DNA of 55,416 nt, the filler included, from Dimargaris cristalligena (lineage: Eukaryota), in assembly GCA_003614675.1 (NCBI GenBank). It is 3 parts of 3 records of this genome, joined end to end, with 100 filler letters (N's around TTAATTAATTAA, not from the genome) between each part and the next. Parts side by side here need not be neighbours in the genome. Positions count along the whole stretch, not along the records: positions 18,529 to 36,931 come from ML002767.1; 2 more parts are not named here. One strand, written 5' to 3'. Positions within the stretch are counted from its first letter, which is position 1, and the number at the start of each line of letters is the position of its first letter. Positions 3,601-39,291 of this stretch are shown here, piece by piece. Under the pieces are notes generated by a model. The model saw only the letters and a program-made list of their open reading frames with translations, did no database searches and was not told where the DNA came from. Both the position numbers and the translations under genes were made by a program.

Positions 3601-6600
3601 AATAGTCAAGGGACGACATTGCCGTAGTCCCACCGGGGGACGAGTTCTCCAACTGTTCAAAGACTTGGGTGAAGAACAGGGCACCTTGGTTCCACAGGCT
3701 GAAAAATTCGTAAAACCACCAGACCACAGTTACCGTGCGGGGATCCACGTTGTCGGGGGTGGCGCCACGGCGGGCCAATCGAGAGGCTATCGTATGGGAC
3801 CAGAAGGATTCCAAAAATGCGTCAGTCGCCGAGTTGGGGTGACTCTGGACCAGTCGCTGGTAGTCGAGGTAACCCCCGCTATCCCCATCATCAGAGGACT
3901 GGGCATAGGTTGATGACATGATGGCGGAATGGGGGCGGAACAGTAGTTCCATTAGCTGGCGGGCACGGGTCCGCTCATTCGCGATTGTAAGCAGTTGCAG
4001 CTCAAGCGCCATAGAATGGAGCATCCAGGCCCGTTGGTGCATGCAAGTGGTGGCCCGGGCCAAGGCAGTCCAACCCGCGGTTCCGCCAAGCACACCGTCG
4101 ATTCCTTCCTGTTCGATATCGAAGCGGGGAACGATTGGTTCCACAAAACGCCCTAAATAGCCGCGGTACAGGGCGAGCTGGCGAGGCCAGAAATCTTCCA
4201 TTTCCCGCAAGTATTTAATGACCGGTGGCCCGGTGAATGGGTCAAGGGTTAGGTTGTAGATGAGATGGAAGCAGCGGGTGGCAAATTCGGGGTGCCGTAC
4301 GAAAAGGTTCATTCCTTCGCTGCCCCCGCCCTCCCCATCAGAGTCACCGGCGGACTGGATGTCAAGGGTACCTTCCCGGAGAGCCTGGATAATAATGTGG
4401 AAGCAGGACATTTTCACGTAGCGCCGGCGACCCCCAAATCCACGGACAGCCATATTAGATGATCCAACAGTAGCGTTCGCTTGGGGACTTTCGAATTCGG
4501 TATCACGGATAGCCGCGGGAGAGGAGATATCAAACCCTAGAAGCCAATGGGCCAGGGATGGGCGACCCCGCTGAGGAGCCAGGTTGGCCAAGATCAGGTC
4601 GATAATGGCGAGGCGAATGGTGTTGGCGGTGACGGGAGCATCCCCCCCCACTGAACGCATCATTGGTGTCGGTAGGAGAAGAACCCAAGAAGCCCAATCC
4701 GGAACCGCTCCCATTGAACTTGCAATCACCAACCGACTCATCGTCCATCATTTCCGGTCCGTCAATTTCGAGCCGACCCAGATACCCAAACAGAATACGG
4801 AGAGACTCGTCGCTATGGTCGAATAAGGCGACTAGGCGGCTTTCCCCGGCCCCGCTGGGGGGCGCGGCCAAGGGCATGGATCCCGCCGCCCCGCGACGTA
4901 GAAGGTCAGTCAAGGGCTGGGAATGGGCAAGGAATACTGGGGACTGGGACAGCCGGTTCAGGATTTGAATGGACAGCAGACAGACCTCCTCGCTGGACCG
5001 ACAGTTGATGGACAGGGCAATCTGGACGATGGCCTGGTGCCGGAATAAGAGCAGCTGGTCGAGAGGAACCAGGCTACCGGGGAGCTGAAGAGCCACTGAG
5101 AAGCCGAGTTGGGCCTGGACCCAAGGAGTGCTGAGGAGCGGGAAGAGTTGCTGTAAAAAGATGGACTGGATATGCAGTAGGCGTCGGATGATTCGCAGAG
5201 TCAGTTGCACGGTGCGTACTGAACGGACGGGGGCGGAGTCCCGTGTCCTCATGGTCGCAGTGTTATTGATAGAGTCCACGGGGTGGCTAATAACCAACCC
5301 CAGCAACTCCTCCAGCAGTTGGGAACCCGACAGGAAACGTAGGACAATCTCAAACCCAGGGTGGAGTACCAGTCGGCGGAGCGTGTTACGCAGGCCCTCG
5401 GGTAGGGTGGGAGATTGGTTGGCTTTCCCACCGGCGGGGTCGCCGCCATTGCCAAAGACTCGCGCGAGCTCGTCCGTATCCCCGAGAATTTGGCTCGGTA
5501 GGCTCGCGACCGTAGGGTCCAGGAGAAAATCGGTCAAATCAAGAGTCTCCAGACAGCGCTCAATCAGTTCCAGACAGGCGTCGTGAAGGTAACCATTCTC
5601 CTCGGGGACCCGGTAGCCCCGCTGGTTAGCTTTGAGGAAAATATGGTCCAGGACCGCGGTCACGTAGGGCGAGATGCCCGGGAGTCGGTAAGGCGCGCCC
5701 AACTCGGTAGGAATAGTCGGTGATGCAACACCATAGTCCAGGGAGGAGATGTCGGAGGTACCCATCGTGATGATGGCGGAAGGGGTCTGCTGGGTCGAGC
5801 CTCCTCGAGTAGGCAACTGGATTAAGGATAGCAGTAATCGCACAAAAGCCAGTGACTCGGGATATACTTCCTTGGCCGCCTCAATTTCTTCGAGTTCGTA
5901 CAAAAGACCTGATACGGTTGGGCCGGTGAGGGGGTACCAAGGGCCCTTTGTCGAAGTGGCACCCATGGCTGGGAGGGTCGAAGCAAATAAATGCTGGCCC
6001 CCTGCTACTGCCAGTCCTGTCGTAGCCGAAGAGGATGCCAGCGGATTTTTCTGGTAATAGCGCTGTAATTCACCCAAGTCGCCGGTGGTGGGAATGGTCT
6101 GAGACATTTCCAAGAAATGCCACACCTGCTGGGCCATGTCGACCACAGCTAGCACTGCGTCGACCGAATCGACGGCAGCCATATGGGGGCTCGCGGCGGT
6201 ACGGAGAGGTGGGGCACAGAATGCCGCTAGGGTTTTGAGGATAGCCGCTTTAAGAATTATAGGCACCCGGCAGCCCAACAGGTCGAAGAGAGTGTACAAC
6301 ACCCGGTACTCGATGTGTTCGAAAAGGGCCAGGCGGACCACCGCCGAGTAAGCCACGGCTTGGCGGAGCAAACGTAGAAAGGCCAAAATCAAGGACACCT
6401 CGTCGGGGGGGGATTTCGGCCCCTGTCTGATCGCCGCCGGATCCTAGGGCCGCCGATACGGCGGGGACCTGTAGCGGGCCGGCCTGCCGCAAACGCTGGG
6501 CATAGAACTGCAGGGCGGCGAAGAGGGCTGACCAGGAGCATAGGCTAGTGGGTTGGGCGGCAGCAAAGGTGGGACGACCCAATCCACCCTGGGCGGACGC

Positions 6601-8508
6601 ACCGTGATTATCAAGGAATAGGTAGGTGAACTGGGCACACTGGGGACCGGTAGCAAGCGACCCTAGCATGTCAAAGTAGGCCCGAATCATGCCCGGCACC
6701 CGGCAGTCACTGGCCCACTTGAGAAACACGTGGAGGCGCTCATCGGTAGGATCAAGTCGGCCCCCGCCGTTTTCATCGTCAGCGGTCAGGAGGGGTTGGC
6801 CAGTGAGGGGTAGCTGAGCGGGGGAGAGGGCAATCCAGAAGCGAAGGCCCAGATCGGGAGCGTCAGCGTAAAGAGTGGCAACTAAGGTAAAGAGATCCTC
6901 AATATCGTGGGAGAGCTTGGGCAGGGGATGGGGCGTGGCGGGCTGTCGTAGCGGATACTGGTGGTAATTCGAATACTGGTGTTGCTGCTGTTGCTGGATT
7001 TGCAGCTGGGGCAGCTGCTGTTGGTGGAGGTAACTATCTTCTTCGCGATAGCGCATACGGCGCAGAATACTGGACATATTGGCAATCAACCCCGTAATAG
7101 TACGGCTCAGCTGTAGACTGATATGCTGCTGGAAGTCCGCATCCAGAAACAGGGCATTCTGAGAGAAAACAGGCGCGGCGGGGTCGGGGGAATCGTAGCG
7201 TTGGGGATCGATGGTCTTGAAAGACAGGCAGTATTCGGTGGCAAAGGGGAATGCGCCGAGCTGGATGGCACGTTCGACCCACTGCTCGATCCAATCCTCC
7301 CGTACCGACAGTTGGTTTTCGATGGCCGGGTAACGGTGCAGGCAGAGCAGCATATACTGGCTCCACTGGAGAATAACCAACCCCCGTAGCCCCTGCAAGT
7401 AGTGGGAGGTGGTGACCCATTTGGTATCGTCCTGCAGCATCTCACTGATATGGGTGATGACGCTGGCGTGGGCGCTCAGCTGGCCCTGGGTATCAGACAC
7501 TGCACTTTGCGTGACCGATCCGGGCGCGGTAAGGTCAATCGAAGCCAAAATGGTGATTAGCAAATACAGGGACACGGGGTCCTCGGCATCGGCCTCCTGG
7601 CGAACATGGTTGAGCAGGGCCAGTAGCTGCGGGGGCTGGACGGCCCGGAAGTAGCTGGTGAGGAAAAGGGCATTAGCTAGCACTAGACGACTCTGGGCCA
7701 CCTTATCGATGATCTCTTCCACGACCTTAAAGCCATACGGCATAGCCGATTGGATGGTTCGGGGCTGAGTACTGCTGCTAAGGGTGGCGGCCGGTTGGTT
7801 AGCCGAAGGAGCGGCTGTGGTCGGCAGGCATTTGACGTCCTCCTGGAGAGTCCGCCACTTGGTGATTTCGGCCTTCTGGGACCCCAACGCTGTCTGCCAC
7901 TGGGCTATATAGTCTTTGTACGAACGGTTACCCGAGGCGGAGGCTGAGGAGGCTGGACTGGTCGCCGCGGACTGAAGGACATACTCCATGAGGAACCAGT
8001 CGCACACCTGACGGAGGGGCTCGTTAAGCTGGGCATCCAACGCGATTTTGACAACGAATTCCAAACACAGGTAGTTATACAGGGATTCGGTATAATAGAG
8101 CAGAATCCCCGTTTCTACCGGGGGCCGTTCAAACCGAGCGCAGTGATCCAGGCCACATTGGATCAGGGTCGCGGCTAGGTATTCGTCGATATTCAAAAAG
8201 TCGGCCAACCGGAGAACTTCTTGGCAGAAGTCGGCGTTCAATTGATGCAAGACGCCGTTAATTTCGGCCACTTGGTCGGTTTCCACCCGCCGGCGATGCT
8301 CCGGGTTGCGCTTGGTCGCAGCGGGGAGGAATAAGGCGGGGGCCAGATGGGTTTGGAGCTCCGCCTGCAAATGCCTGACCAGGCTGAGGGAGGTTTCCTC
8401 AAGGGCGGGCTCACCGACTAGATCCTGGGGCAACGCGCATGCCTCGCTGAGAAGCTCGTACAGCGACTTAAATGTGTCGGGCTTCCAAGTCGGGGCAGTT
8501 GTGTCCAT
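665..8508 (-). CDS. NUP192: Nucleoporin Nup192/Nup205, intronless, interrupted by two +1 frameshifts (G8 at 6405-6412, C8 at 4642-4649); about 2613 aa if corrected
   Basis: Three overlapping ORFs (6250-8508, 4530-6398, 665-4741) carry successive Nup192/205-type motifs: 'LADFLNIDEYLAATL', 'LLYELEEIEAAKEVYPESLAFVRLL', 'IPTELGAPYRLPGISPYV', 'PSLAHWLLGF', 'LRGNMYVALL', 'YVFESKMNLFLRIAQ'. Removing one base from each homopolymer gives 7842 nt = 2614 codons with seamless joins (EIPP-DEVSLILAFLRLL; AFSGG-DAPVTANTIRLAII). Confidence 0.88.
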
Positions 8509-10111
8509 TAGAGAGAGAGGGCAGTGGAATTAAACCGGATAAAGAAGGTAAATAAACAGAAAAGGCACCTTCAGATCAAACGGATCAGAGAGGGTCGAAC
8601 AGTCGGGGGAAGGAAACAAAGCCGGATAGACACGGCTGGACGGATGGTAAAACTAAGGGAGGAGTATATAGGAATATCGGTGAACAAGAGGAGACTAGCC
8701 AGCATTAGGCTTTGGCCTGGAGAGTAAGAATAAAAGTGGGGAGGTAATGGCCAGAGGCTTGGAAGGGTCTTCTTAGTCCCGGGAATTAAGGCTGGTAGGG
8801 TAGGGTTAGAGCTAGCTAATACACGAACACCATCCCTAGATAGACCCCGCCGGGACTCAAACACCATTCGCCTTCGCCAATGAGGACGCTTCAGTCCAGC
8901 CAGGGCACGCTCATTTCCAGTGTGGGCTAAACGGACACTACTACTAACTACTACCACTACTGCTGCTGCTGCCTTTAAATCGGATTTTTCTAGTTAAATT
9001 TGTGTCCCAAGTCTTGCCACGATAGTGGGTGGGCGGGCTCTCTGGAACCCAATTTAATCAGCATGCTGTATAAATTAAGTTATACGAGTCCAAAAGTCTC
9101 GAATTGGGCCAGTTATATACAACACAACAGCACCTGGCTGAGTAAATAGAGGGCCTTTCATTAATAGGTAAGAAAGCATCCGTGGGTGGCTATTTCCTTC
9201 AAAATCCTGTCAAACGATGTCCAACTCCATCAATCAATATGCCAAACTGGCGTCTATACGACCCAAGAAGCAGTCTAGACAATATCAGCCAGTACAGTAA
9301 TTACATGGCTAAAACCTATTATAGCCTGCTGTGGGGTGGTGGAGAACGTGTGTTGAAAAGGAAAACCATTGAAGACTCAAAAGTATACACCAAAGGCGGC
9401 GGTACTACAGCCAGCTTAAAATAATTGAATACCAATGAAGTCGGATCCAGTGGGAGACTGTGGGCCTAGAATAACAGGACAGTAATTTAAATACTCAGCT
9501 ACTGCATTAGAAGCACTCTACAGAGACCGCTGCCCCTAGTTTATAGAAAGACGGGTACTTAGTTTATGACACGTATCAGAAGCCTTTGAAGTTCCTTGAT
9601 TTACACTGGTCTTCGTACTGTCCATTTTGGCGATTTGACACTCTCTTGTTCGAATTGATAAATTGGCAAAAAACGTACGCCAAAGCGCGTTTGCCCTCCT
9701 AAACGAGGTTATTAAGCCCCAGTGCAGTCCATATATAGTCTCGCTCAAGTGGGCCTTGGGTGGTTCTCACTACCTTGTCCGTCTTGAGTATATTTTTTTA
9801 TTGCAATAGTTTTTGGCTTTCCCATTCACAGCTCGATTTGTCACAAAACCGTATTCAAAGACGGCTTGTTCTTCGTCCATCTCAGTTTACCTCCATTTGC
9901 ACCAACAGCGCTGCCGTCACCGTCGCCACCGCCCCCTCGACTCTCGGCCACAGCCTTGTTTGGGTTCTTTCAAAATCTTCTCTATAGTCCCTCCTCCCCC
10001 CGCGCCCCCTCATAGACGCGCAATTGGCTTATCTACCTATTTTTCATAGAGCTCCCCCTCCCTTTCAAAAATTCAGTATTGATACCTCTATTAACTATTC
10101 CTTATTTAGCC

Positions 10112-13100
10112 ATGTCTCTGATCCACTATAAATTCAAAGCGTCTAAAAACTATTCGTCGGTGGTATTTGACGGATTGTCCATCTCTCTCTATGATCTCAA
10201 GCAGGAGGTACTAAAGGCCAATAAATTGGATCCCGAGAGCTTTGACGTTATCATTTCCAATGCCCAAACCGGTGAGGACTACACCGAAGACAATTCCTTA
10301 ATCTCCCGGAACACATCGGTATTCGTACGTCGTATCCCTGTAAAGCCCGGCCGGAGCGGTCTGGCCGGTAGCGGTGGCCATGGCCACGGACACGGTTCTA
10401 CAGGAGGGGGAGGTGGTGGAGGTCTCTCGTCTGGGTATGGCGGCGGACTTTCCGGCGGTGGTGGCCGCAACTATCCCCCGGTATCAGGCGCCCCTTCTGG
10501 CTACCCATCGAACCCAACCCCTACGGGAGGTGCCACTTCTTCGAATTGGAATGTCGGCTCGTCCATGTCGCAATTCGGTTCCTCTTCAATGCCATTAACC
10601 GAGGAGGAGGGGATCCAACGCATGTTCCAACAGTCGTCTCAGCAGTGGGAACAGCGGGCCGAAGAGTTGGCGACGAGCCACGCTAAACTTAACCGGTATC
10701 GGCCCCAGCCCCGCAATCCACTGGGCCCTGGAGGCGGCCAACAGGCTAACCGACCCCTTCCGCCCAACTACGTGTGCCACCGGTGCGGTCAAAAGGGTCA
10801 TTGGATCTTCAATTGCCCAACCAACGCGGAAAAGAATTTCGGACAACCCCGCATTAAGCGTACTACGGGGATTCCCAAAAGCTTCCTTCAAAAGATCGAC
10901 GCCCTGCCCGAGGACAAGGGCGCCATGGTCACTGAGGACGGAAGCCTAGTCGTGGCCCAGGCCAATGACGCGGCCTGGCAGAAGTTCCACAAGTCGTCGC
11001 AGCAAACCGTCGCAACCGATGCGGGTTTGGAGGGAATCACGGTTCCGGCCGATTTCAAATGCGCGTTATGCCAAGGGTTAATCAAGGAGGCGGTGCGCAC
11101 TCCGTGCTGCCAAACCGCCTATTGCGACGACTGCATTACAGGGGCCCTCCTGGACACCCACCCATCGTCCCATTTTACTTGCCCCCACTGTCGAAAGTCA
11201 GCGCTCGTGCCCGACCAGCTCATTCCTGACCCGGCGCTTCGCCAACGTATCGATCACCATATCCAACAGTGGGTGACTAACCAGTCCCAGACCCCTACCA
11301 CCTCGGATACGCCGCAGCCACCAACGCCCAGCTCTAAACTCGAGTCGGAAGCCGTAGCAACGGCCGAGTCTGAGTCGGCGGGGTCCAAAATGACTCACCC
11401 AACGGATGGGCCCAAACCGGTCCAAAACAACCGCCCACCGGATATGCGAGGCCCATCCATAGGAGCCGGTCCCCGGGATAATCGATTCCGTCCCTATGTC
11501 CCCCAGCCTCCCATGTACCCGCCAAACAACTCCTACCCTTACTTCCGCCCAGGCATGGGTGGTCCCCGCCCTCCCTACATGAACCCGCAGTACCCCATGA
11601 ATATGGGTATGAATATGAACATGAATATGGGCATGGGGATGGGGATGGGAATGGGGATGAACCCCATGAATATGCCCATGGGAATGATGCGACCCCTTGG
11701 TAATGGATACCCCAATCCTCAGCCCGGTCGAATGAATATGGGTATGCCCTACTACTCGCACCCGGGCAGTGCTGCTGGTAATGGTCAATGGAGAGGTCCC
11801 CAGAATAACCAGGCCTACCCTAACAACCCGAATCATAATACTGGCTACCCACACATGGTTGGCGGACATGGGCCCACAACCGACGCGTCTCCCCAGCCCT
11901 CCTATACGGGCGACACCGATGATGAGGATTACCCCGGGGATAACGGCCGCGTTCCCGACCAGCAAATGTATATTCATTCTCATAGCGAAGACCATGATCA
12001 TGGCAATGGGAACAGCTATGACTATGACCAGCGCTTAAACGACTATAATGACAACTATAACGATAATGCCAACCCCCAGGAATACATGGATGCCCCTTCT
12101 CGCCAGTCACCCAGTGACCGCCCTGGCCAATGTTCACGGTCACCGAGCCGAGGTCCCCCAACGTCAGATCGAACCGATCTTTATCGAGCTGGCTCTGACC
12201 GGGACTCCACGCCACTCGAGAATGGTAAGGCAAGCGTACCTCGTCGATCCGCATCACCAACCCGCCGGCCTTCCCCTGACCCGATACGCTCGTCACCTAT
12301 CCAAGAGAATCTACGTAGTCCGTACAGCACAAAATCTTTCCCAGCGGATAATGACCAACCCGCGGATAGCCACTTCTCGCCTGCATCCAGCGCCAATCAC
12401 GGTCGCAATCGACGAACAAGTACCAACGGCTCCCGATCCGGTAGGTCCTCCTCCCGCCGGCGCGAGCCTTCCATGACATCCGAGTCCCGTCGCTCTTCCC
12501 GCCGTTCAAGCCGTAGCCCGAGTCGGTATCAGTCCCGTCCAAAGCGATACGATAGTAACCATAGGGTGTCCAGTCCCAATCGGCGGACTAGCCGGCCACG
12601 GGATCGCCGGTCACCAGTCGACCGCCATCCCCGTTCCTACCACGACTCCGATCGGTCGTCCCGCCGTCGCGTAAGGTCTCCCTCCCCTGCGAAATCACGC
12701 CAACGGTCTCGGTCTCGGGATCGCCCCGATAGCCGCAGCCGTACTACCAGTTCCACTTACCCACGCGAGCGCCAACGCCGTAGGTCCCGCTCCCCTTCCC
12801 GTTCCCGCACCCGTCCATCTACCACGACAACCCAAAGCGAAGGAATCCGTATTGCCGGGAGTGGTCGTTCTCACAAAACTTCCGGGGCCCGACGCTCTCC
12901 TTCCCCATTACCAGCATCTTCATCTTACTCACGGGATCGGGCGACTTCACGAACTACTACAACAAGTCGGCGTCGTGCCGACGAGCAACAAGATCACCCC
13001 TACCGACGACCAAGCAGCCCCCGCCATCGTAATGCAAGTGGCCGGTCCAGTAGGGACCATGGCCCGGACAATCGATCATCCCGTAACCGCCAACGTAGCA

Positions 13101-13180
13101 ATGGTGATCATGAAGATAGGGATAAATCAACTTACGGAGAGCGACTAGTCGGCGCCGCTAGAAATAAGGGCCATAGATAG
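10112..13180 (+). CDS. MPE1: Mpe1/RBBP6-like cleavage and polyadenylation factor (DWNN ubiquitin-like domain, CCHC zinc knuckle, RING/U-box, long Pro/Met-rich and RS-rich tail)
   Basis: First ATG at 10112 gives 'MSLIHYKFKASKNYSSVVFDGLSISLYDLKQEV...LISRNTSVFVRRIP' (DWNN), then 'PPNYVCHRCGQKGHWIFNCPT', 'RIKRTTGIPKSFL' and RING-like 'CALC...TPCCQTAYCDDCI...CPHC'. Confidence 0.92.
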   Translation: MSLIHYKFKASKNYSSVVFDGLSISLYDLKQEVLKANKLDPESFDVIISNAQTGEDYTEDNSLISRNTSVFVRRIPVKPGRSGLAGSGGHGHGHGSTGGGGGGGLSSGYGGGLSGGGGRNYPPVSGAPSGYPSNPTPTGGATSSNWNVGSSMSQFGSSSMPLTEEEGIQRMFQQSSQQWEQRAEELATSHAKLNRYRPQPRNPLGPGGGQQANRPLPPNYVCHRCGQKGHWIFNCPTNAEKNFGQPRIKRTTGIPKSFLQKIDALPEDKGAMVTEDGSLVVAQANDAAWQKFHKSSQQTVATDAGLEGITVPADFKCALCQGLIKEAVRTPCCQTAYCDDCITGALLDTHPSSHFTCPHCRKSALVPDQLIPDPALRQRIDHHIQQWVTNQSQTPTTSDTPQPPTPSSKLESEAVATAESESAGSKMTHPTDGPKPVQNNRPPDMRGPSIGAGPRDNRFRPYVPQPPMYPPNNSYPYFRPGMGGPRPPYMNPQYPMNMGMNMNMNMGMGMGMGMGMNPMNMPMGMMRPLGNGYPNPQPGRMNMGMPYYSHPGSAAGNGQWRGPQNNQAYPNNPNHNTGYPHMVGGHGPTTDASPQPSYTGDTDDEDYPGDNGRVPDQQMYIHSHSEDHDHGNGNSYDYDQRLNDYNDNYNDNANPQEYMDAPSRQSPSDRPGQCSRSPSRGPPTSDRTDLYRAGSDRDSTPLENGKASVPRRSASPTRRPSPDPIRSSPIQENLRSPYSTKSFPADNDQPADSHFSPASSANHGRNRRTSTNGSRSGRSSSRRREPSMTSESRRSSRRSSRSPSRYQSRPKRYDSNHRVSSPNRRTSRPRDRRSPVDRHPRSYHDSDRSSRRRVRSPSPAKSRQRSRSRDRPDSRSRTTSSTYPRERQRRRSRSPSRSRTRPSTTTTQSEGIRIAGSGRSHKTSGARRSPSPLPASSSYSRDRATSRTTTTSRRRADEQQDHPYRRPSSPRHRNASGRSSRDHGPDNRSSRNRQRSNGDHEDRDKSTYGERLVGAARNKGHR

Positions 13181-18753: not shown

Positions 18754-20012
18754 TTATCTTTTGCAATTTGTTTGCCCATCCCCGACTAGTAGGTGAATCC
18801 CCTTTTTTTATTGTACAAAGTTCATCCAATACTTTTTATATATGGGATTGGTACCTAATGTCATTGGCAAATTTATAAGTTAATTTTTGAATTAAATATA
18901 TCCAACGTGTGAAGTACTCGAGAATAGTCAGGAAAGCTCGTCCCTAACATAGGTTTATGCACTAGTTATCTGTTTTTTTATTTTTCATCTCATAGAATGT
19001 CCTATCGTGTCACAGAATTGAATGCCTGTGGGAACATGGCGAAAATCTATTGACAACATACCCCTATCGGGTATCCAGCACAGCTTGATGGCTTGTCTCC
19101 CACCTCTATTTTCGGTTCATCTAGCACCTGATGCTCCAAGTATTACCGCGCGGAACAGCCGATGGTCGGCTAATTCTACCACCTTTGTTACACAGAGTCT
19201 GATCGATGACAGGCTAGTTACCGGCTTTTTGCTATCACCAACTCCAATCATTAGGAAGCAATTAACCTAAAATAGGCCGTACATGTGTCAAAGTGTTATC
19301 CGAAGCTATATATCACCGCCGCGTCTGGCTATCCAATGTACCTGATCCTGCCACGAGATAGTATCATACCATTTGTATGCATAGTTCTTAAACACATCCG
19401 TATATTCCAGTGGCCAATCTTGGATATGGGTTATGTCATCAATTGACTGACTCTATTTATGGGGACTGTTCCTCTTGCTATTCCTGATTTGGTTTCCCAA
19501 AATATATTACACACGCGTAATCCCAAGGTAAAACTAATACAAGGGGTTCTATGATGGTAGGATGAAAGCGCCGATGTGGATGTTACACTACAGCTATTGC
19601 TTAACGTAGGACTTGGGCCTGGCAAAGGGGGATCATCCCACCTCTTTTGCTACTTTGCCCTAACTAGATGCCTCCGTGATACCATTACAATTGAAACAAT
19701 TGGCGCCTAACCCCCGCCCCCCAAAATGATACAACAACAACTATGCACCACTTAGGGCATGCCCCAACCGAGGGCATTGCCTAAGCTCTTGGACTTATTT
19801 ATTGGTTAGATTCTGATGGTCGGAAACATAAAAAGGGTCCGTCAGGCCCCTGAACGGTAATAGTTAGGCCATTTTGTTGGAAACCATTTACCCTGACCTG
19901 GTATGTATATATTTGATTTACCTTTGCTTTTAGTTATCTTTCACCGTTGTGTGTACTATTATTTATCCATCGGACTTTACGCTATAATCCTGATATCCCC
20001 TTTTAATCCACC

Positions 20013-21696
20013 ATGTATATTCGGGTCTTTTCAATTTTCTCGTATACGGCTGTGTTAGTTACGACTTTAAATGCAGCCATTATATCGATCGAACAGTTGT
20101 CTGGATTCATCTCCAAGCTGCCCTCTGAATTGCAAAACGAAGTTGCTAACCAATTACCCCTAGGCGATTTTGCCCGTCGTGTACATTTTTTTCAGCATGA
20201 TCCGGTCCTAAATTACTCCAACCTGAATAATCGGGTAAGTTTACCTTCGGAAAAGACATTCTCTAATCATTACTTTTTAGCAGGAGATTTGTAATCTCGA
20301 TAATGGTTGTTTTATACCAGTCTAGTGGCGATTAATTTTCCATAAGGGGGCCGCTAAAGCCCCAATCGGTTTCCACAAGTCGGCTATGCGCCCATAACGG
20401 CCTGTTGCAGCTATAGAATATAATTAACCCATCACACTATCCTTGTGGCTGTGCTTTTATTCCCCCATCTTCCACTTCCACCAGATAAACAAATTTTTGA
20501 ACAACGCAATCCGGGATTTTGAATTGGTGTCTAATAACCCCGATAAAAACCCCAAAGTAGAAACCCGCATCCAGAACTTCAAGAAAGAGTTTTATAATCT
20601 CTCCCAATTAGAGTCATGGTCCGCGTTTATGAGCAACTTTCTGGACATCTATAAAGACTGGCAGCCGATTGACCTTTCCGATCAAGAGGCCCGACTGGGA
20701 ATCGTACTTCCTTGGTTACAGTGGCGGGTTGCTTTTCTGGATTTTGTACGCACCAGCCAGACCAACCCCCTTTTGGAAGAAACCAACTGGCGTATCGTCA
20801 ATCTTGAGACTTTCTCTTCGTACGAACTGGCCCTGAATTTTCCCCTGGCTAGTTACGCCAATGCCAAAACGCTAGGCGCCTTGGATCGTATTTACCGAAT
20901 AATATCGGTGAATTCCAAGTTTGAGGCCGATTCGTCGGAAGTCATTGAGTCGCATTTCGGTGTCCAACTACCGGCCATTCAGCTGACCGATGAGTTGTCC
21001 CGGAGTGCTCCGTCATTTCAAACGACTATTGAATTGACGCTAGTACTCGCCGTTTGGCGGCTCTATAGACGGGGTGACACTGGTCAAGTGGAAAAATTTA
21101 TCGACACCATCTGGCAACGGGCTACCGTCCTCGAGAATGGCCACCGGGGGATTAGTCCCCTGGGTGGAAGTACCGTCTTCCTCCTGGTACTGCTGGCGGC
21201 CCTTTACCAAGACCATGTCATGTTGCATCTACTGAGTCCCAAACTTCTTACGATGGAAATCTATACCGCGAATTTCCGCACCACTCGGAGCGCCACCGTT
21301 CGCCTGAAATGGTTTGTGCAGTGTCTCGACGGCTGGGGCTTACCCACCACCGCCGCCGATTTTCTGCGAAATTCCGGGCTGCCTTTTGATCGTCAGTCTA
21401 TGGTCCCGGACTTCTGTATCCTGTCCGATTATATTGGCTGTCCCTGGCTCGGCTTGTCTCCCGAGGGAGGGTTCGGGATCGTGGTACCGCTTAATTTACT
21501 GGAGTCCAAGTCGGACGTGATCCAGTTTTTACCCGACCATTTACAAGAAATACACACTTCATTTATGCCCATTGATGACGCCAAACTATGCATCTATCGG
21601 GAATCCCATCCTATTATTGGGACCATATGGTCCACGATTAAACAAGCCCAAATGTTGATACAGGGGTTACGGACACTGGCTACCTACACGCACTAA
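20013..21696 (+). CDS. Predicted secreted protein (477 aa) with N-terminal F-box-like motif; exons 20013-20234 and 20485-21696
   Basis: Signal-peptide-like 'MYIRVFSIFSYTAVLVTTLNA', then 'ISKLPSELQNEVANQLPLGDFARR'. A phase-0 intron (GTAAGT at 20235 to CCAG at 20484) joins it in frame to the 417-aa ORF. I recognise no family in the helical-looking remainder. Confidence 0.75.
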
Positions 21697-22869
21697 CCTG
21701 ATGTATATTACATTATACTTAGAACTATTGGTAAATGCTAGTTAGACCACCTATATATGTAGTGCCATGAGGACGTCGGCGATCAGCCTTCAGAATCCGG
21801 CTATCAATCCATTATGCGACTACCTTGGCATTGCGAATTATTATCGATTATTCCAATTTTTGCAACAAATTTGAACTGATTTCGAATTTTGTGTGAACAT
21901 CTCCACTCCTTCGGGAAGTTAAAGTCCAACTAGTGATTTCGATTCTAAGATATTGACTATATACTATACCAACTGAGTGGCGAATATTTGAAATGTGTAA
22001 TAGAATTTGGCATATTTATAACGATTGCTTCACGACCTTGGTTCGGGGTGCCCTCCCCCACCCTGGAAACCAATTACAATTCGTTCATTCCTACTTTCGA
22101 TTCAAATTGACCCGACTAAAATAATTATTCTTAATAAACCTTTTCTTTTAAAAATCATTATTCCTCTATATTTTGATAAATCGACCGCCTTGATCAATAT
22201 GACCCACCCCAACCCTACTTCCTCCTCTGCAGCCAATGTGCCCCTTACTATCGGCCAGGAGCCACCCCCTTCGACGCCAATACACCGTCTACAAGAGCCT
22301 GGGGACGCCCGGCCGCATTCCCAAGCCTACCTCTGACTGGACGAACCCTGACAACTATACAATAGTAGCTATGGCGGAAGCAACGCTCATTTTAATAGTC
22401 ACCTATATGACTTATACCCCATTCTTTAACATCAATAAATATCAACGGGTCATCCGAATTCTAATTTCTGATGGCCCCTAGTGCAGTAGAAATTGCAATT
22501 ATCGGACTGATAGGTTGCGGCTTAACGTTTTACGACCCAGTACCTAGTGTTGAGAGGTCAATGGATCATCACCGATTGTAGGCCACGCCTACATCTATAC
22601 TAATAAGCCTCAAACTACCAGTCCAGACTTACCATAATCAGAAGAACCCACATTTTTACCTTTAACATGACATGAGAATACATCGTCTTGGGTTTCCGCA
22701 TTACAAGAGGGCCTCTCGTTTCCCGATTTTAGTGAACAACCCTTTATACCGACGGTAAAACAACTGCCATTATAACCTAATATAGGGATTTGGTACACTC
22801 CCTTTTGTAGGCTTTTTTACCCCTCGCCAACCATTTTATATCAGGAAATTTTATAAAAGTATGTAAGGA

Positions 22870-23012
22870 ATATGGGAGAGGTTCAACTGAGTTGCATAAC
22901 GAATAATCCATTAGATGGAGCAAATATTATTGGTTAAAAATAATATCCCATATATTTTCCCATTCACATATCATTGATAACCCTATACAGCTGGACCGAA
23001 CTTCACCCATAT
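22870..23012 (+). mobile_element. MITE family copy 3 (full length, ~143 bp, imperfect ~29-bp TIRs)
   Basis: Left end ATATGGGAGAGGTTCAACTGAGTTGCATA versus reverse complement of right end ATATGGGTGAAGTTCGGTCCAGCTGTATA. No ORF. Three other copies in the window. Confidence 0.8.
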
Positions 23013-23530
23013 ATAGTTAAATGAGAAAACGATTCGACATGCCCTTGGCAGGATAACACAAAGAGAACCAAAGTATGCCGTATAAAATCTATAATAAAGA
23101 GCGATGGTATTGATGGATTAGCAGTAGAAGGCAGGGAAGCAAAATGGTTTAAACACCTACCTGTAAGGCCAGAGTTGTGCAGCCGTAGTAGGGATAGCAA
23201 CACGAGTCCAGTCGTCCGGGTGCTAAACAAACCCTGCTATTTTAATCGCAGAGGGTATAGTTGCTAATAAGGGTCCCTGTATTAAATGGGAACATTTTAA
23301 ATCCCTCAGACAGATTAGGATATTGCAGCAGGGCACCTCCGAGAAAGATATGTACCGAAGGGCTCACAGAGATTATCATGGCTGGTTCAATTTACGAAGA
23401 ATAGAGGGGGGCTTAAGATACAGACAGAATAAAATAAACAAATTGGTATCAGTAGAGGTGGGATTGTACTCTGGAAGATACAAAAAGGGCGGCCAAGAAA
23501 GTGTCCATGCCACAGTGATAAAAGTAATAA

Positions 23531-25401: not shown

Positions 25402-25947
25402 TCATTCATTGAAATTGGAAAACAGGGACCGTCTGGGGGCCTTAATGGTGATGATGCCATTCTCCGTGCGGGCTTCGGCCCGTGAAGTATCCACGTAGGA
25501 AGGCACGGTTAGGGTGTGGTGGAAGCTGTGGATGTGGTCTTTGTGAAAGTGAGAAAGGTGGGGATGTTTGGGGGGGCTCGAGGGTTGGCTGTGGTGGTGG
25601 AGGTTATTGGGAAAGTGGTGTTTGTGGTGGTGCTCGTCATGGGTTTGACCCTGAAGGACAAGCCCGCCCAGCATAGCAGTGACCCGCAGTGACGAGGGTA
25701 TCACCCGAGGAATTAACACACTGATAGTATACACGGAGTCGGTTTCACGGGTGTCCAGTACCTCCATGGGGGTGTTCAATACGCTACCCGGGCCAGAAAA
25801 AGCTCCGAAGTTGTGGCCCGGAATGCCCCAGGGTTGGAAATGGGAGGGAATGCCCTGGCTGAGGAAATTGGGGAATTGGGTGGAGGGGTTGGCGGGAGTA
25901 GGTACCTGGCTCCGCTCGGTGTAGAATGCACTATAGGGCTTGGGCAT
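25402..25947 (-). CDS. Small heat-shock protein (HSP20/alpha-crystallin domain) with His-rich insertion
   Basis: 'LDTRETDSVYTISVLIPRVIPSSLRVT...LVLQGQ' and 'SFHHTLTVPSYVDTSRAEARTENGIITIKAPR' match the alpha-crystallin pattern (F.R...LP..VD...A..ENG.L.I..P). N-terminal arm is Phe/Pro-rich. Confidence 0.85.
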   Translation of the reverse strand: MPKPYSAFYTERSQVPTPANPSTQFPNFLSQGIPSHFQPWGIPGHNFGAFSGPGSVLNTPMEVLDTRETDSVYTISVLIPRVIPSSLRVTAMLGGLVLQGQTHDEHHHKHHFPNNLHHHSQPSSPPKHPHLSHFHKDHIHSFHHTLTVPSYVDTSRAEARTENGIITIKAPRRSLFSNFNE

Positions 25948-26444
25948 AGTGTTGAAAGTCGGTGGTGGGAGTTAGGGTAAAAAGACAGTGGGTTTTGGTT
26001 CGCTACAGAACTGGGGTGGAGAACTCACGTATAAGGCAGCGTAAGTGGAGGAATTGTATGGGGAAGGAAGGAGGGTGTAGGATATAGGAGGACGCCTGTG
26101 GTGCTGACTAGGTGAATGAATAGGAATGGAAAATGCGGGCAAATGTTCAAGAGTGCCGACTGTGAATTAAGCAGTTAATGCTTTGTCCAAGGCAATAGAA
26201 CCAAGGCGTGAGTGAGGAGGATGGATTGGGAATCGGAACAATTAAGAGGGAATGCGATGCAGGGGGGACGGCACCCGACAAGAAATAGTCGCTAATGCAG
26301 GAGAAGAACTAACCGAAACAGAGAGATGGTAGTTGTTAGATGACAGGGACTGGGAAACAGCCAGCGGCAACTAGACGATAAGTTAGACAGTAGTAAATGT
26401 TAACGGGCAAATGTGCTGCACTAGGAGCCCTGGAAACGCCCTGC

Positions 26445-27395: not shown

Positions 27396-30300
27396 ATGTT
27401 TGAGGTAGGGGCTTTCCCCATGCACCGCCAACCGAGGCTATGTGTTCTAGCGTTCGCATTAGTACCTAACCTGGATCGGAACGGTGGCGAAGGAAGAATA
27501 CGGCTCAATATTATCCCGCCTCTTGGCCGGCGTGCTAACCAACGTCTACAAGCCTTTGCTATGTAACCTATGCCCTATTCTTGTATACCTTGCCATACCA
27601 GCTTGCCGGGGTTCTCAAGGGGCACACAGACACAGTAGTGGCCCTTGACTTTCACTTATTTTCAGACGCTGGGCCTCTCCTTCTCTCGGGTTCCGGTAGG
27701 TCTTACTGATTCGGGACGAGGCCAACCCTGGACGATACAAGTCCATATTGCTTACTATTGGCGACACTAGCTGGGGAAAATGATGGCAGCGTCGGTGATA
27801 TAATGATATGGGGGGAGGATGAGGCGGAGCGTGGAGCCTCTCACGAGTCCCACTTTTAGCCTCGCATATCCCCCTCCCCTCCGCCTTGTTGTCCTGCTAA
27901 ATCCACCTATAACCATGCCTGTTCGGTCTGGTGGTTTATCTTTTCATTTACCCTCGACTACATTCCATTGTACCAGCCGCTTGTTGGTAAATATTAGAAA
28001 GTCATCCGCCCTGCCATATCATCATCATTTTATTATAATTATTATTGCCATAGTGATCCTAACAACAAGTATATTACCCTCTATTATTTTTGGTGGGGCG
28101 GGGCGATTATGTCACATAATATGCTACTTTAACCGCTACCTCTGGTGGCTAAATTACCTACCGTGCAACTACTTTTGCATCAATGCAATGGCATCCCCAA
28201 TCGACGTGGCCGCGGTGATTCATCAAAGAGGATGCAACGGCACGTCTATGGGATCTAAGAACCCGGAAATCAGTCAGAGCTATCCGGGGCTTCGATACTG
28301 CAGTAAGTAGCTCTAATGCTCATATTAAGTGACCTACTTCCCCATGGTTACCCCAACCGGTCTCAATGACGTGTTATGAGAGACCTGTACAAGTGGCCCA
28401 GCGTGAATTGGCGCCCGTTGGTGTTTTATAGGCCATTCCACGGTGTGGGTAATCGTCTGGCTTTGAAGCGGCCGGTATTGGCATTCTGCCTCTGGCCATC
28501 GTGATACTGTATTTATTTTAACACAGCTAATCGATTTCGCTGGGGGATCGGAGTGTAGATTCGAGAGGTTGTGATTGCCTCTCGACTCTGGAAATTGTAC
28601 TGCCTGCAGTACCCCCTTAACTGTTCGACCTGTTATATCCATGTCGGGTAAAGTACTTAACTCCCCGGCGGTATAATATTGATATATCCAATGACTAGGT
28701 GGCGTCGGCCCGATTTGGCCATCCCACTCGCCAGGCACAACGGTTCTATTTAGCTGCTGCTAATCAGGTAAACTAAACGGCCACAATCTAGCTATATGTT
28801 ATGGCCCCCAGAGTATCGCTCGAGGTTGAGTAGGCGAGGGCACTGTCAGCCAGCCTCCTTGGATGTGATCCTGACATACATTCCACATCCAGTAAATGCA
28901 CCTGCTTCGATAAGGCCTGGACCAGACGACTTAGGGCCTAACACCCGCATCAGGCGAACTTGCCACCCTTGACCAGTTCCTGCTCGGTTTATTCATCATT
29001 GAAAAACACCATAGGCCAACCGTATCCTACATTAGTCCAGCTGCCTATCCGTGTGCTATCAGTGGATAGTATCTGTTTGACTAACTTCCTTGAAACTGCA
29101 CTATGTATACACACAGATTTACGAGTACGACCTCCGACAACCCGGTATAATTTTGTCAGAGCCTATACACCAGTTCAGTGTGGGCGAGGACGAAATCAAC
29201 ATGGTAAGCAATAGCATTATTAGTATTGGCCGGCTGATTACTTATAGAGGCCGGTTTATATCGCCAAGCGGAACTATGCATGTACAAGCAGGGCCACGTT
29301 TAATTGAAGCCCTACTTGGCATCGTTTAAACCCCTACATACCGAAATACCATAGTGGTTGGTATTGCCCCGGATCCTTCAATCGAATTTCTCGACTGAAA
29401 CCAATTGGAACAGCTGCATTTTTTTATATAAAAAGATCCGCAAATTGGTCTGTCTTGTGCCCTGGATAGCTTGGCCAAAAAGGTCGACCATAGGGAAAAA
29501 TATCCGCAGCCCTATAGTTACATAGCTCAGCATGTCCTCTATCGCACTAACTCTCACCCACCTCTCTCCACCCATGCACGCCTACTTTTTCACATTTAAC
29601 TAAACTCGCCGTCGACCGCAGATTGATGTAGATCGCCGCGGGAAGTTTTTGGCCGTGGCCGACGACAGTGGCGAACCGGCTCTCTATGATCTAGTCGACC
29701 GACGACGCCATCCACGCCGGTTCCGCAAAGGCCATGTGGGTAATATTTGCGCCAGTGTGTGCTTCCAACCTGTCGCACCCTACGACTTGTGGACCGGGGG
29801 CATGGATATGCAGCAACTGCAATGGGACAGTTCCCGGGCCATCCTACTGGGCCGCTGGGCCAACCCACCACCACCACCACCATCATCGTCATCGTCGGAC
29901 GCGACCAACGCTAATGCCAATTCGCAATTGGTGAATCCGCCGTTTGTCTATAGTCTGGCGGTTCACCCAAAAGGCCACCAAGTCGCGGCGGGGCTTGGCA
30001 ATGGGGCCATCCGAGTGGTGGAATTCATGGAGCAGCCCCCCTTTAATAACCCCGGGATGACGGGTAAGAAAGATACGACGGCTACTACCCAAACCAAACA
30101 GGGCAAGAAGACTAAAGGTAAAAATGCCAAGGCAGCGACGATTACTGTTGCCCAACCGGAATGGCGGGAACACCCGTCGCTAGTCGACACCCACGCCTAC
30201 GCGGTGTCCGCTTTGGCCTACGCCCAGTTTGATCCCTCGTGGTTGGTGTCGGGAGGGTTAGACGGCCAATTGGGACTGTGGCGGGCCAAGCTGCCGGACT

Positions 30301-30593
30301 CGGTTTTAACCTCTTCTTCATCTCCGGCCAGGGTTACGGGGTCCCAAGGGGACGGTGATAATGACGATGGTGGTGGTGATGTGTCACCCCCGTTGGTGTT
30401 GGTAAATAAGTACGTTTCCTTCTTCGATAAGGTAGAATGCCTCACTACGGCGGATTTGCTCGGTCGCAGTGCGGCCCGGGACAAGTCCGGCGATACGACA
30501 CCGGGCTCACGTCTGGTCGCCCTGGGTGGGGTTGTAACGCAGCCCGATCTCAAGGGCGCAATCGCACTGTACCGATTTGGTGACAGTTCCTGA
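27396..30593 (+). CDS. WD40-repeat protein, WDR53-like (434 aa); exons 27396-27404, 27602-27695, 28229-28302, 28699-28767, 29117-29203, 29622-30593
   Basis: Spliced translation 'MFE-LAGVLKGHTDTVVALDFH...LLLSGS-EDATARLWDLRTRKSVRAI...-VASARFG...FYLAAANQ-IYEYDLRQ...GEDEINM-IDVDRRGKFLAVADDSGE...GHVGNICASVCFQP...TGGMDMQ...LVNPPFVYSLAV'. All introns are GT-AG with compatible phases. Motifs EINx, ADDSG, NICxSVxF and NPxxxxS are WDR53-like. The 9-nt first exon is the least certain part. Confidence 0.82.
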
Positions 30594-35034: not shown

Positions 35035-36853
35035 GATTATAGACGTGTGGTGAAGAAGGGAGGGGGTAAGGGGTGATTGATGTGAGAAAATAAGGTGGTG
35101 AGGGTAGGTGGTCGAGATTATAATTTCGACAAGCGGGAAACGGATAGGGTCCTCCGGATAATTTTTTTAAAAAAAGCCAACTCCTTGAAGTTCAATGTAG
35201 GACAAGGGGTGATGAGGAAAAGTCCTGGGGATGTATAATAGTCGAATAGCGCGTTAAATGGCCAAGATGTACAATTGCAAACACAACAATAATGTAGTTA
35301 AAACCTAGAGCTTATGATAAATGTCAAAGTAAGACGGTAATATTTTTAGGGCGAATAGAGAAGGTGTGGGCAATTGAAATGAAGATAAATTAATTTAATT
35401 GATGTTTACAGTCAATGTAATATAGATAAGGTAAGCGGTCAACGTTTACCGGCGAAAATAATTAAATTAAATTAGTTCGTGTACAAGGTGGGCATATCAA
35501 GGCGCTAATCGCCAAGTTAATGGAAAATACAAGAGAGGAGCTGGCTGATGGTGGAAATGGAGGCAATGAGAGTTGGATATTCGTTAAGAGGGCGGCTCTC
35601 CCCGGCCCTTTTATATCGGTTGGCGACGCGGTCTTGATGGATTTTGCCTCCTCTCTCCTACCGCCTGGCTGGTGGTTCGGAAGGGCCCACGGCTTTCGGG
35701 GTTTCCCGTAAGTTAAAGTAGGAGCGAAAAGGGAAGGGAAATGCGCCCATACGGCGCGGAGCTCGAGGCTGATAGGATCGGCCACCGCCTGCTTCTTCGT
35801 ATCCCTTACATGCCATTGAGTTCGTCGACTGTACTAACTCGTTGTCAGAATGGCCGGTCCCGGGCTTCATGATCAACCCCAATAATTGATCAATCTCTTT
35901 CTCCTCTCCGTCTTTCCCTTTCCCTCATTTCCCACTTTTTCCCTTTTCATTTTCCCTCTCCCGCCCACTCGCTGAGCATTCCTCTCGCTCTCCCTCCTAA
36001 GGCTGACAGACCCCACGCCGCTTGCCAATCCTGGCCATGGGCTCTCCCCAATGGATATGGCCCTGCATCTTCCAAAAGAAGCGGGTGCACACTTAGAAGG
36101 TGCACTATACAGAGGCAATAATATCGACAGAATCCGGCAACATTGGAGTGGCGTAGAGGGAAGGGTGGCGGTAGTGCTCAGACGTTCTCGCCGGATACCC
36201 TACCCATCGCCGAGTTCGTTGATGAGACATTCTAACAAAGACGGGGTGCACATGATTCGCCTCGGGTGCTAATAAAGTGCTGTGGGTAGTATACCGCCAA
36301 GCTCCTAATTAGCCTGTTGGCCAACCACTCATCCACTTCTCCTTGTATCTACCCACCGCCTTCACCACCACCCATATTCTCTACAATCACTAGTACTGGG
36401 CTAGTTAGGTAAGTCTAGCACCACAAACCCCCTACGGTGCCGGTTCAATCATTTACGTCGCCCTTTAGATTTCAGTCGCCATTTTTCCATCCACCTAGTG
36501 ACACGATCGGTCAGACAACCGTCGCTCATGAATATGAGAGTTCAATACTGTGAAAAATATGACTGCAAGTAAGTGAAGCCATCCCCTAATAGTTTCATAA
36601 TGCACATTTAAATGGGTCGAGTTCTCTGAGTTACTAGAACAGTTATTGGTTGTATTTTTAAACTCCGCCAATTAGCGGGAAAATGCTTAAATCGACTAAG
36701 TCTGGAACGGCACCTATCCACAATTAAAATGGCTAATAAAAAATAAATTATACGCCACCTTGGATAAGGACTATGGAGTATATTTTCATTAACTGGGTTT
36801 ATGTACCGTATTTTAGTTTATCGCTCTATGACCCACCCCCCCAGACATTATAT

Positions 36854-36931
36854 ATATGGGTGAAGTTCAGCTTGGTTGTATAAGGTTTTAACCGATATGT
36901 GTATGGGAAAATTGGTGGGATGTTTATTTTC
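36854..36931 (-). mobile_element. MITE family copy 4 (right end, truncated at contig end)
   Basis: Reverse complement GAAAATAAACATCCCACCAATTTTCCCATACACATATCGGTTAAAACCTTATACAACCAAGCTGAACTTCACCCATAT aligns with the right half of 22870-23012. Confidence 0.75.
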
Positions 36932-38122: not shown

Positions 38123-39291
38123 TGTCACCCAGGTTAACTATTCTTAGTCTGTCAAGAGTCCTGAGTGTTGGCCTTCCTAATCTGACTTAATCCAGTCCTA
38201 ATAACCACCCATCCTTATTAGGCCTTATAGCACTATATTAACCCTCCCATAGTCACCCCTGGTACTATGGGTCATCCTTTATTATATAACCCTGCCCATT
38301 GTGACCCCAATGCTTTGCACCCCAAACACTCCACTTGCTGATCCAAGACTCTTCCAGTTCTCAAAAGAGTCTTCCCAATGTGAAGCTGTCTGGCTGGGCC
38401 CTTTACCTATCAGCACCTTAGCCTTAGTTGTATTCCCCTTGGGACCTCCCTCTGGAGCCATCCCCATATATATAACTAGGCCCTACTAGACTAGTTCAAT
38501 TCCTTAGCTTATTCCTACCCCTTAGTTTACCTCAATAAACTCTATATATGATCACCCCCTCATACTAACTAGTAAGTGTACCTACCACACATCCCTCACA
38601 TTCACCTATATCTGTCCTTTATTAGTTAGTACTACACCCCTATCCTAATGCTAGTAGCCCACTTGGCTGAGTCTAAGCCCCACCTACTGTTAGAAGCCTA
38701 TCCCCAAGATTCTTCACAGACTAAGAGTGGTTAACTCAGGTGACACCAAGGATAGGCTTCTAATGGTAGGTGGGGCTTAGACTTAGCCAAGTGGGCTACT
38801 AATATTAGGATGAGGCATGGTACTAACCAATAAAGGATAAGTGTGGGGAAATGCAAGGGATATGCAGTGGGCACACTTACTAGTTAGTATGAGGGGGTGA
38901 GCATATATAGTTTATTGAGGTAAATAGGGGTATGAATAAGCTAAGGAATTGAACTAGTCCCAATGGGGCCCAGTTATATATACACAGGGACAGCTGCAGA
39001 GGGAGGTCCCAAGGGAAATACTACTAAAACTAAGGTATAGGTAGATAAATAGTCCAACCAGACAGCTTCATATTAGGAAGACTCTCATGGGAACCAGAAG
39101 TGTCTTTTGGATTAGCTGGTTGAGAGTTTTGTGCAAAGCATTGGGGCCAGAAGGAAAAGGGTTATATACTGAATGATGATCCCAGAGTACTGGGGGTGAC
39201 TATGGGAGGGTTAATATGGCACTATAGGGCCTAATAAGGGCAGATGATTATTAAGTCTGGATTAAGTTGGATTAGGAGAGCTGACACCTCA
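38123..39291. mobile_element. Foldback structure: ~540-bp inverted arms (38162-38703 and 38750-39291); the left unit is bounded by ~38-bp TIRs TGTCAC...GTGACA (38123-38160 and 38708-38745)
   Basis: Arms align over their whole length; the innermost 61 bp have 5 mismatches, all transitions. Spacer GATTCTTCACAGACTAAGAGTGGTTAACTCAGGTGACA is an inverted copy of TGTCACCCAGGTTAACTATTCTTAGTCTGTCAAGAGTC. No coding capacity recognised. Confidence 0.88.

Follow-up and report, generated by a model that had tools for sequence, protein, structure and literature searches.

A two-exon gene of Dimargaris cristalligena encodes a candidate secretory protein from a species-restricted family with an F-box-like half motif

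A stretch of 55,416 nucleotides from the genome of the mycoparasitic fungus Dimargaris cristalligena (assembly GCA_003614675.1; three parts of three records joined end to end with filler, hereafter the window) contains an intact two-exon gene, which lies in the part taken from ML002767.1 and is already annotated as a hypothetical protein. On sequence comparison the gene is one of a few rapidly diverging paralogs that occur in D. cristalligena and in no other species searched, and its product may best be read as a lineage-specific secretory protein with a possible role at the host interface, a reading to which we give roughly an even chance (about 0.5). An earlier note on this DNA had gone further and proposed a signal peptide fused to an F-box, secreted in order to hijack the SCF (Skp1, cullin, F-box) ubiquitin ligase of a host. 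We take the motif on which that proposal turned to belong to a fold peculiar to this family, or else to be an amphipathic motif that arose by convergence, and do not regard it as an F-box proven to bind Skp1. The same note had guessed, correctly, that the sequence came from a haustorial or parasitic early-diverging fungus: D. cristalligena belongs to the Dimargaritales, a haustorial mycoparasite order that, according to the available excerpt of PMC9866270, parasitises Mucoromycota via appressoria and haustoria.

The start codon at 20013 lies in the context CCACCATG and is preceded by an in-frame TAA at 20004-20006; the translation of exon 1 opens with MYIRVFSIFSYTAVLVTTLNA followed by A, and its reading frame closes inside the intron (Table 1). 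Joining the two exons gives a coding sequence (CDS) of 1434 nt whose translation is identical, residue for residue, to the annotated 477-amino-acid protein RKP35868.1 (P0010; database name hypothetical protein BJ085DRAFT_36319 [Dimargaris cristalligena]), which confirms the two-exon model of the earlier note, and the F-box-like stretch that the note had singled out, ISKLPSELQNEVANQLPLGDFARR, falls exactly where it had been placed. A contig from another D. cristalligena sample (run X5) spans 19000-22500 unbroken with four differences in 3.5 kb; the CDS frame is intact there and only two of the differences lie in the CDS, too few for a selection test.

When 1.84 billion representative proteins were searched exhaustively with phmmer, six proteins including the query were returned at E<=1e-3, and the other five are all D. 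cristalligena hypothetical proteins (E 1.8e-30, 4.9e-20, 3.8e-10, 4.9e-9 and 1.0e-5; identity 23-33%). These paralogs are RKP40047.1 (P0003), RKP34170.1/KAJ1976510.1 (P0004), RKP39737.1 (P0006), RKP37157.1 (P0007) and RKP39388.1 (P0008); the count for the species is based on protein databases, and two of the five are present also in a second annotated D. cristalligena assembly. Other routes added no relative: a word-indexed search with exon 2 matched the query alone, a profile search with the family alignment returned two proteins that were already in the family, and 76 pattern matches obtained in a search of JGI metagenomes for close relatives yielded none that could be confirmed. The members share a collinear layout, comprising a hydrophobic N-terminus, an LP-type motif, a (K/Q)(I/V)NxFL motif, an FLLTLAA helix and two invariant cysteines, and homology to all five paralogs runs over the whole helical domain. 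P0003 is N-truncated as modelled and starts downstream. The six-member alignment contains 16 invariant columns, namely M1, N76, L79, L116, L245, W265, F279, L311, A312, C354, L360, A364, C385, G392, W395 and G402. The exon junction, between R74 and I75, lies within the (K/Q)(I/V)NxFL motif, of which N76 and L79 are the invariant residues, and paralogs searched against exon 1 with tblastn align to it at E 0.19 (P0004) and 0.023 (P0003); the splice is therefore supported, because the junction falls inside a conserved motif and the paralogs align to both exons.

One further protein of the second assembly, KAJ1977955.1 (P0009, 724 aa), consists of P0007 (447 aa) fused to an unrelated C-terminal half of ~340 aa and is probably a merged gene model.

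The evidence for secretion comes from the N-terminus and from the cysteines, with signal-peptide likeness judged by inspection and Kyte-Doolittle hydrophobicity and not by a trained predictor. In the query a single basic residue, R4, precedes a run of 22 uncharged residues (V5-I26), after which the flank is net acidic; the best 19-residue window of this N-terminus scores 1.77 (residues 8-26). Read as a cleaved signal it would have an h-region from V5 to L19 and, with cleavage between TLNA and the next A, a Leu at -3. Under the positive-inside rule the acidic flank that follows the hydrophobic segment would therefore leave the main part of the protein luminal. Textbook n, h and c regions of cleaved signals are present in P0004 (MKVYITSALLAVFSFTNLGRA followed by ADD) and P0006 (MKVNNFGIALFALLAGRQYSSA followed by NT), whose short h-regions and AxA-like sites are typical of cleaved signals and not of anchors. 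A clearly signal-like start is thus carried by P0010, P0004 and P0006, three of the five members that have an N-terminus, and the best 8-residue hydrophobicity reaches 2.0-3.0 in all five. The two cysteines conserved throughout the family are the only ones that P0006 contains and are 31-33 residues apart in every member, which points to a disulfide kept throughout the family and to oxidising surroundings; in the query, a C354-C385 disulfide is possible.

Three other destinations were considered for the same protein. A mitochondrial presequence does not fit, the N-terminus being hydrophobic and not amphipathic-basic; the query has no HDEL/KDEL for retention in the endoplasmic reticulum, and it lacks the hydrophobic C-terminus of a glycosylphosphatidylinositol anchor signal.

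Exon 2 encodes a domain of ~400 residues that the earlier note could not assign and that still resists assignment, with no Pfam family at E<=10 and no known fold matched. The full-length family profile returned a single PDB entry, a PAX3/7-binding protein whose E value of 0.12 is not meaningful. In the ESM Atlas the best score for exon 2 was 0.79, to unrelated bacterial clusters, while the atlas's own structure of the protein (predicted template modelling score, pTM, 0.32) was too poor to use and its structural rows fell under the bar. Modelled in full from the six-sequence alignment, the protein comes out all-alpha, at a pTM of 0.68 and a mean predicted local distance difference test (pLDDT) of 65.6. 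The model gave no Foldseek match at E<=1e-3 (best E 0.011), and its best VIA match, with a Z of 7.5 to generic helical repeats, does not rise above the background that the tool gives for helical proteins. A substrate-binding repeat of the leucine-rich repeat (LRR) or ankyrin type was not found in exon 2, by Pfam at E<=10 or among the generic helical matches.

F-boxes normally occur in cytosolic or nuclear proteins and not behind a signal peptide, and the F-box-like stretch of this protein departs from the canonical domain in several ways. Exon 1 scores 12.3 bits against PF00646 (E 0.17) and residues 22-91 score 13.4 bits (E 0.075), where the curated Pfam cut-off is 20.5 bits, and the match covers profile positions 1-22 of 43 only, so that the Pfam check suggested in the earlier note does not place the protein in the F-box family. 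None of the six full-length family proteins and one of the five N-terminal pieces matches the Pfam F-box, and the region of the third F-box helix, with its conserved tryptophan, has no counterpart in the query. Among the five N-termini L36 is invariant and the Pro is kept in three, but the exact LP.E is kept in just two (the query and P0006); loss of LPxE among paralogs, which the note had named in advance as speaking against its proposal, is therefore partly seen. Hydrophobic residues are kept across the paralogs at 40, 44, 48 and 53, and the family-conserved hydrophobics fall on F-box motif positions 1, 5, 9, 13 and 18, with an Asp at position 17.

Searches against known structures did not recover an F-box either. 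With the family N-terminal profile no F-box chain was found in the PDB, the one match being a glutamate transporter (E 1.3), and the exon 1 sequence gave no PDB match. The AlphaFold models place short helices at residues 26-34, 38-47 and 50-60, followed by a long helix, at a pLDDT of ~70. The N-terminal model matched no F-box protein in its 18 Foldseek rows, each with E>4, nor in the 50 VIA rows shown, where Z was at most 5.0, a result that is not decisive because the domain is small. A complex prediction that paired residues 22-95 with a dictyostelid Skp1 as stand-in scored 0.01 (mark 0.34) and, having been run without alignments or controls and with an uncertain partner fold, has no bearing either way.

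Several observations weigh against the reading preferred here and are best considered together. The family N-terminal profile was aligned by hhalign to a reference of 17 F-box domains from a giant-virus bin, all above the Pfam cut-off, with a score of 15.0 and a probability of 5.0% over 18 columns, LP on LP; all 30 column shuffles stayed below this score, with a maximum of 9.7, as did the reversed profile with 7.3, whereas a control with true F-boxes, the five weakest against the other twelve, reached 98.2% over 46 columns. P0010, P0004 and P0006 also align singly to the same reference and in the same place. In a language-model search with residues 22-110, limited to named clusters, F-box clusters came top with 0.88, 0.83 and 0.82 against a bar of 0.9, and the ten best named neighbours were all of the F-box family or clan, a score of ten of ten that one third of shuffled proteins also attain and that was obtained with 81 of 256 features shared. 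With its 22 residues, the uncharged run of the query could suffice as a signal anchor, and P0007 and P0008 have short, weakly hydrophobic N-termini. Finally, the words 'transcriptom' and 'RNA-seq' are absent from the main text of the genome paper, and the gene models therefore appear to be predicted.

The interpretation in the earlier note was borne out in part by these data. The signal-like N-terminus recurs in P0004 and P0006 and, like the two invariant cysteines, would fit a secretory protein, but it fades in P0007 and P0008. The central claim, an F-box that binds Skp1, did not hold up: a conserved F-box-like register and an alignment that beats every shuffle are weak signals in its favour, but the Pfam match is sub-threshold, half of the domain is missing and the alignment probability is 5% where true F-boxes give 98%. 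All the signals that favour an F-box come from the same ~20 residues. It is doubtful that the motif is a divergent true F-box, and binding of Skp1 by the motif would be somewhat more doubtful again.

Among the alternatives, the one that survives best makes the protein a divergent, endogenous F-box adaptor that serves the SCF of the fungus itself, in which case the N-terminus would be an anchor that leaves the F-box cytosolic or would go unused as a signal. This adaptor would draw on all the F-box-like signals described above, a 22-residue uncharged stretch can span a membrane, and F-box proteins normally carry, behind the F-box, a helical domain that binds the substrate and varies between them. 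However, it inherits every weakness of the F-box match, the charge distribution favours a luminal body, the short h-regions and AxA-like sites of P0004 and P0006 suit cleaved signals, and the invariant cysteine pair better suits an oxidising compartment. Furthermore, no match was found outside D. cristalligena, whereas housekeeping SCF adaptors are usually conserved more widely. On balance an endogenous adaptor is unlikely.

Less likely still is the full effector model, in which the protein would be secreted from the haustorium and imported by the host, the half F-box behind the signal would dock on Mucorales Skp1, and the helical domain would deliver host proteins to the SCF. The biology is suitable, as D. 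cristalligena is a haustorial biotrophic mycoparasite (PMC9866270, in excerpt), and the combination of a eukaryotic signal peptide with an F-box has a precedent in the SSGP-71 proteins of the Hessian fly (excerpts of PMC7330099 and PMC4617103). The motif lies within 15 residues after the signal-like N-terminus, and it brings with it the sub-threshold Pfam match, the in-register alignment above 30 shuffles and the language-model F-box neighbours at 0.88, in a family that is lineage-specific, fast-diverging and, for the query, set in an AT-rich, gene-poor flank. Nevertheless, the match extends over no more than half of the F-box profile, with no counterpart of helix 3 or its tryptophan; three of five members lack LPxE, none of the six full-length proteins matches the Pfam F-box and no PDB F-box chain was recovered; and every supporting signal stems from one stretch of ~20 residues.

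Likewise improbable is a protein integral to the endomembranes or the plasma membrane, with no role in ubiquitin ligation and held by an N-terminal signal anchor and a second span at residues 296-314. Two hydrophobic segments do exist, at 8-26 (1.77) and at 296-314, where the Kyte-Doolittle value of 1.95 is the highest in the query, and the second is conserved as FLLTLAA with L311 and A312 invariant. The equivalent helix, however, reaches only 1.21 in P0006, 1.38 in P0007 and 1.76 in P0003 at its best window, and in P0004 and P0008 it lies below those proteins' maxima of 1.24 and 1.65. In the model the segment packs in a helical bundle, in a block with a pLDDT of 85-88, and it is flanked by Gly/Ser and Gln/Asp and not by basic residues. 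Helix 296-314 is thus probably a buried core helix as modelled, a membrane span being less likely.

That the locus is a mis-predicted or decaying open reading frame (ORF) in an AT-rich intergenic block is very improbable, since the bare 'hypothetical protein' annotation, the predicted 250-nt intron and the absence of the query from the 90% cluster from the second annotated assembly are set against a 422-codon open frame that is unlikely by chance at the local GC content, five divergent paralogs collinear across both exons and the splice junction, a frame intact in the second isolate with two CDS differences (I23T and a synonymous change at S371) and a moderately confident fold (pTM 0.68).

The preferred reading, a lineage-specific secretory protein, can be laid out as follows. 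The N-terminal hydrophobic segment would direct the protein into the secretory pathway, with possible cleavage near A21/A22, and the mycoparasite would release the product or carry it on its surface, where the protein may have a role in contact with the host. The signal would be followed by four N-terminal helices and then by the ~400-residue all-alpha domain, possibly stabilised by a disulfide through the cysteine pair. The LPxEL...L...DF stretch would be a family-conserved helix-turn-helix that opens the mature protein and resembles the first half of an F-box, the second half being absent. The gene is best filed as a further case of a familiar class, the lineage-specific candidate secreted proteins of a biotrophic parasite.

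Skp1 and F-box genes were also met in giant-virus sequences. On giant-virus contigs of 1.8-2.5 Mb (L004 7662-8555, L005 2-691, L008 and L009) Skp1 genes run in one frame up to ...RKTFNIK and are then broken twice, each time briefly, ahead of the conserved NDFT...EEE and KENEWC ends, as two small introns would do; the spliced forms of this viral Skp1 are the database entries P0012, P0015 and P0017. The giant-virus bin G001 (573,639 bases) has 20 F-box matches at E<=0.001, of which at least 18 are above the Pfam cut-off, and they accompany the bin's own Skp1-like gene on L001.

The earlier note had placed the gene in a gene-sparse, repeat-containing block, and this description holds in part. None of 11 ORFs tested in the 6.8 kb upstream and 3.7 kb downstream (short ORFs, 13.6-24.4 kb) has a Pfam match, the GC content around the gene is 0.36-0.46 compared with 0.49-0.59 in the gene-dense left part of the window, and two short dispersed repeats lie 3' of the gene, whose matches in many contigs of both runs indicate a small multi-copy element. 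However, tandem repeats were not found in 13-26 kb of the window, nor was a tandem paralog of the gene found in the window. An 80-nt inverted pair, 22936-23015 and 36851-36930, is 78% complementary over a distance of 13.8 kb and probably represents two copies of a short dispersed element flanking a gene-poor stretch. Elsewhere, five nested inverted-repeat pairs at 38165-39287, with arms of 52-130 nt that are 79-92% complementary, form one imperfect palindrome of ~1.1 kb centred near 38726, which may be a foldback element or one resembling a miniature inverted-repeat transposable element. For the rest, the window carries ordinary housekeeping genes. Among them, the Nup192-type nucleoporin is split over three frames, which implies introns or frame changes between them, and the beta-ketoacyl synthase, spread over at least two open frames, is probably an intron-rich gene of the mitochondrial type.

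Table 1. Coordinates along the window of the gene, its parts and the other features described
Feature	Position	Strand	Details
Exon 1	20013-20234	+	74 codons; carries the signal-like segment and the F-box-like motif
Signal-peptide-like or signal-anchor-like segment	20013-20075	+	residues 1-21, MYIRVFSIFSYTAVLVTTLNA; possible cleavage after TLNA
F-box-like half motif	20109-20180	+	residues 33-56, ISKLPSELQNEVANQLPLGDFARR; LP turn, helix, start of second helix
Intron	20235-20484	+	250 nt, phase 0; GTAAGT 5' end, pyrimidine-rich tract, CAG at 20482-20484
Exon 2	20485-21696	+	403 codons to 21693, stop TAA 21694-21696; all-alpha domain
Hydrophobic helix	21148-21204	+	residues 296-314, GISPLGGSTVFLLVLLAAL; family motif FLLTLAA; best conserved
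Cys354 codon	21322-21324	+	invariant in 6/6 family members
Cys385 codon	21415-21417	+	invariant in 6/6 family members
Run X5 difference, A>C	19241		upstream of gene
Run X5 difference, T>C	20080		exon 1, I23T
Run X5 difference, G>T	20416		intron
Run X5 difference, C>T	21375		exon 2, synonymous at S371
Short dispersed repeat, just 3' of gene	21754-21812	not assigned	~85-92% matches in many same-organism contigs
Second short dispersed repeat, 3' of gene	22013-22055	not assigned	~85-92% matches in many same-organism contigs
Nup192	665-8529	minus	three overlapping long open frames: 665-4747, 4530-6443, 6250-8529
DWNN/zinc-knuckle protein	10016-13180		
Hsp20	25402-25971		
WD40 protein	29604-30593		
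Ketoacyl synthase pieces	42664-45026	plus	42664-43074 N-terminal, 44337-45026 C-terminal
CLN3	51840-53222		
Es2	54034 onward		

Next to nothing is known of the means by which early-diverging mycoparasites, Dimargaris among them, manipulate the fungi they parasitise, and a species-only family with a signal-like N-terminus, a cysteine pair, no known fold and an AT-rich flank makes a reasonable set of host-interface candidates. At present the gene codes for a hypothetical protein, already annotated, whose motif is suggestive but stays below threshold, and no claim beyond that is made for it. A secreted fungal F-box effector was not described among the papers listed in the literature searches, and the available excerpt of PMC8146833 describes support for such F-box roles in eukaryotic pathogens as lacking. 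In the main text of the genome paper the terms 'secret', 'effector' and 'F-box' do not occur, although its supplements may hold secretome tables.

Compared with the canonical F-box (PF00646/PF12937), the query shares the LP turn followed by an amphipathic helix, the hydrophobic register and the Asp at position 17, but it matches profile positions 1-22 of 43 and is without a counterpart of the third helix. In polerovirus P0, SKP1 binding reportedly needs no full F-box but just a short motif of the LPxx(L/I) type, which would set a precedent for a functional half motif, although P0 is a viral cytosolic protein with other motif spacing. VirF and AnkB are bacterial F-box effectors. The RipG/GALA proteins of Ralstonia (RipG7) are F-box effectors delivered by type III secretion that recruit host SKP1-like proteins (excerpt of PMC4617103). 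With the bacterial effectors the query would share the idea of an F-box that a pathogen delivers in order to recruit SKP1-like proteins of the host, but they use type III or type IV secretion and combine clear F-boxes with LRR or ankyrin repeats, whereas the query has a eukaryotic Sec-type signal and no proven F-box. Closest in outline are the SSGP-71 effectors of the Hessian fly, in which a signal peptide precedes an F-box and LRRs, which bind wheat Skp1 and in which deletion of the F-box abolishes activity (excerpts of PMC7330099 and PMC4617103). Here too a eukaryotic parasite has a protein family in which a signal-like N-terminus is followed by a motif of F-box type and then by a variable, putative binding domain, although SSGP-71 proteins have a recognisable cyclin-like F-box, LRRs and shown Skp1 binding, while the query has a half match and an orphan helical fold. 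If the half F-box did bind host Skp1, it would represent ubiquitin-ligase mimicry by a secreted fungal effector, a fungus-against-fungus counterpart of GALA/AnkB and SSGP-71 built on an unknown helical substrate-binding fold.

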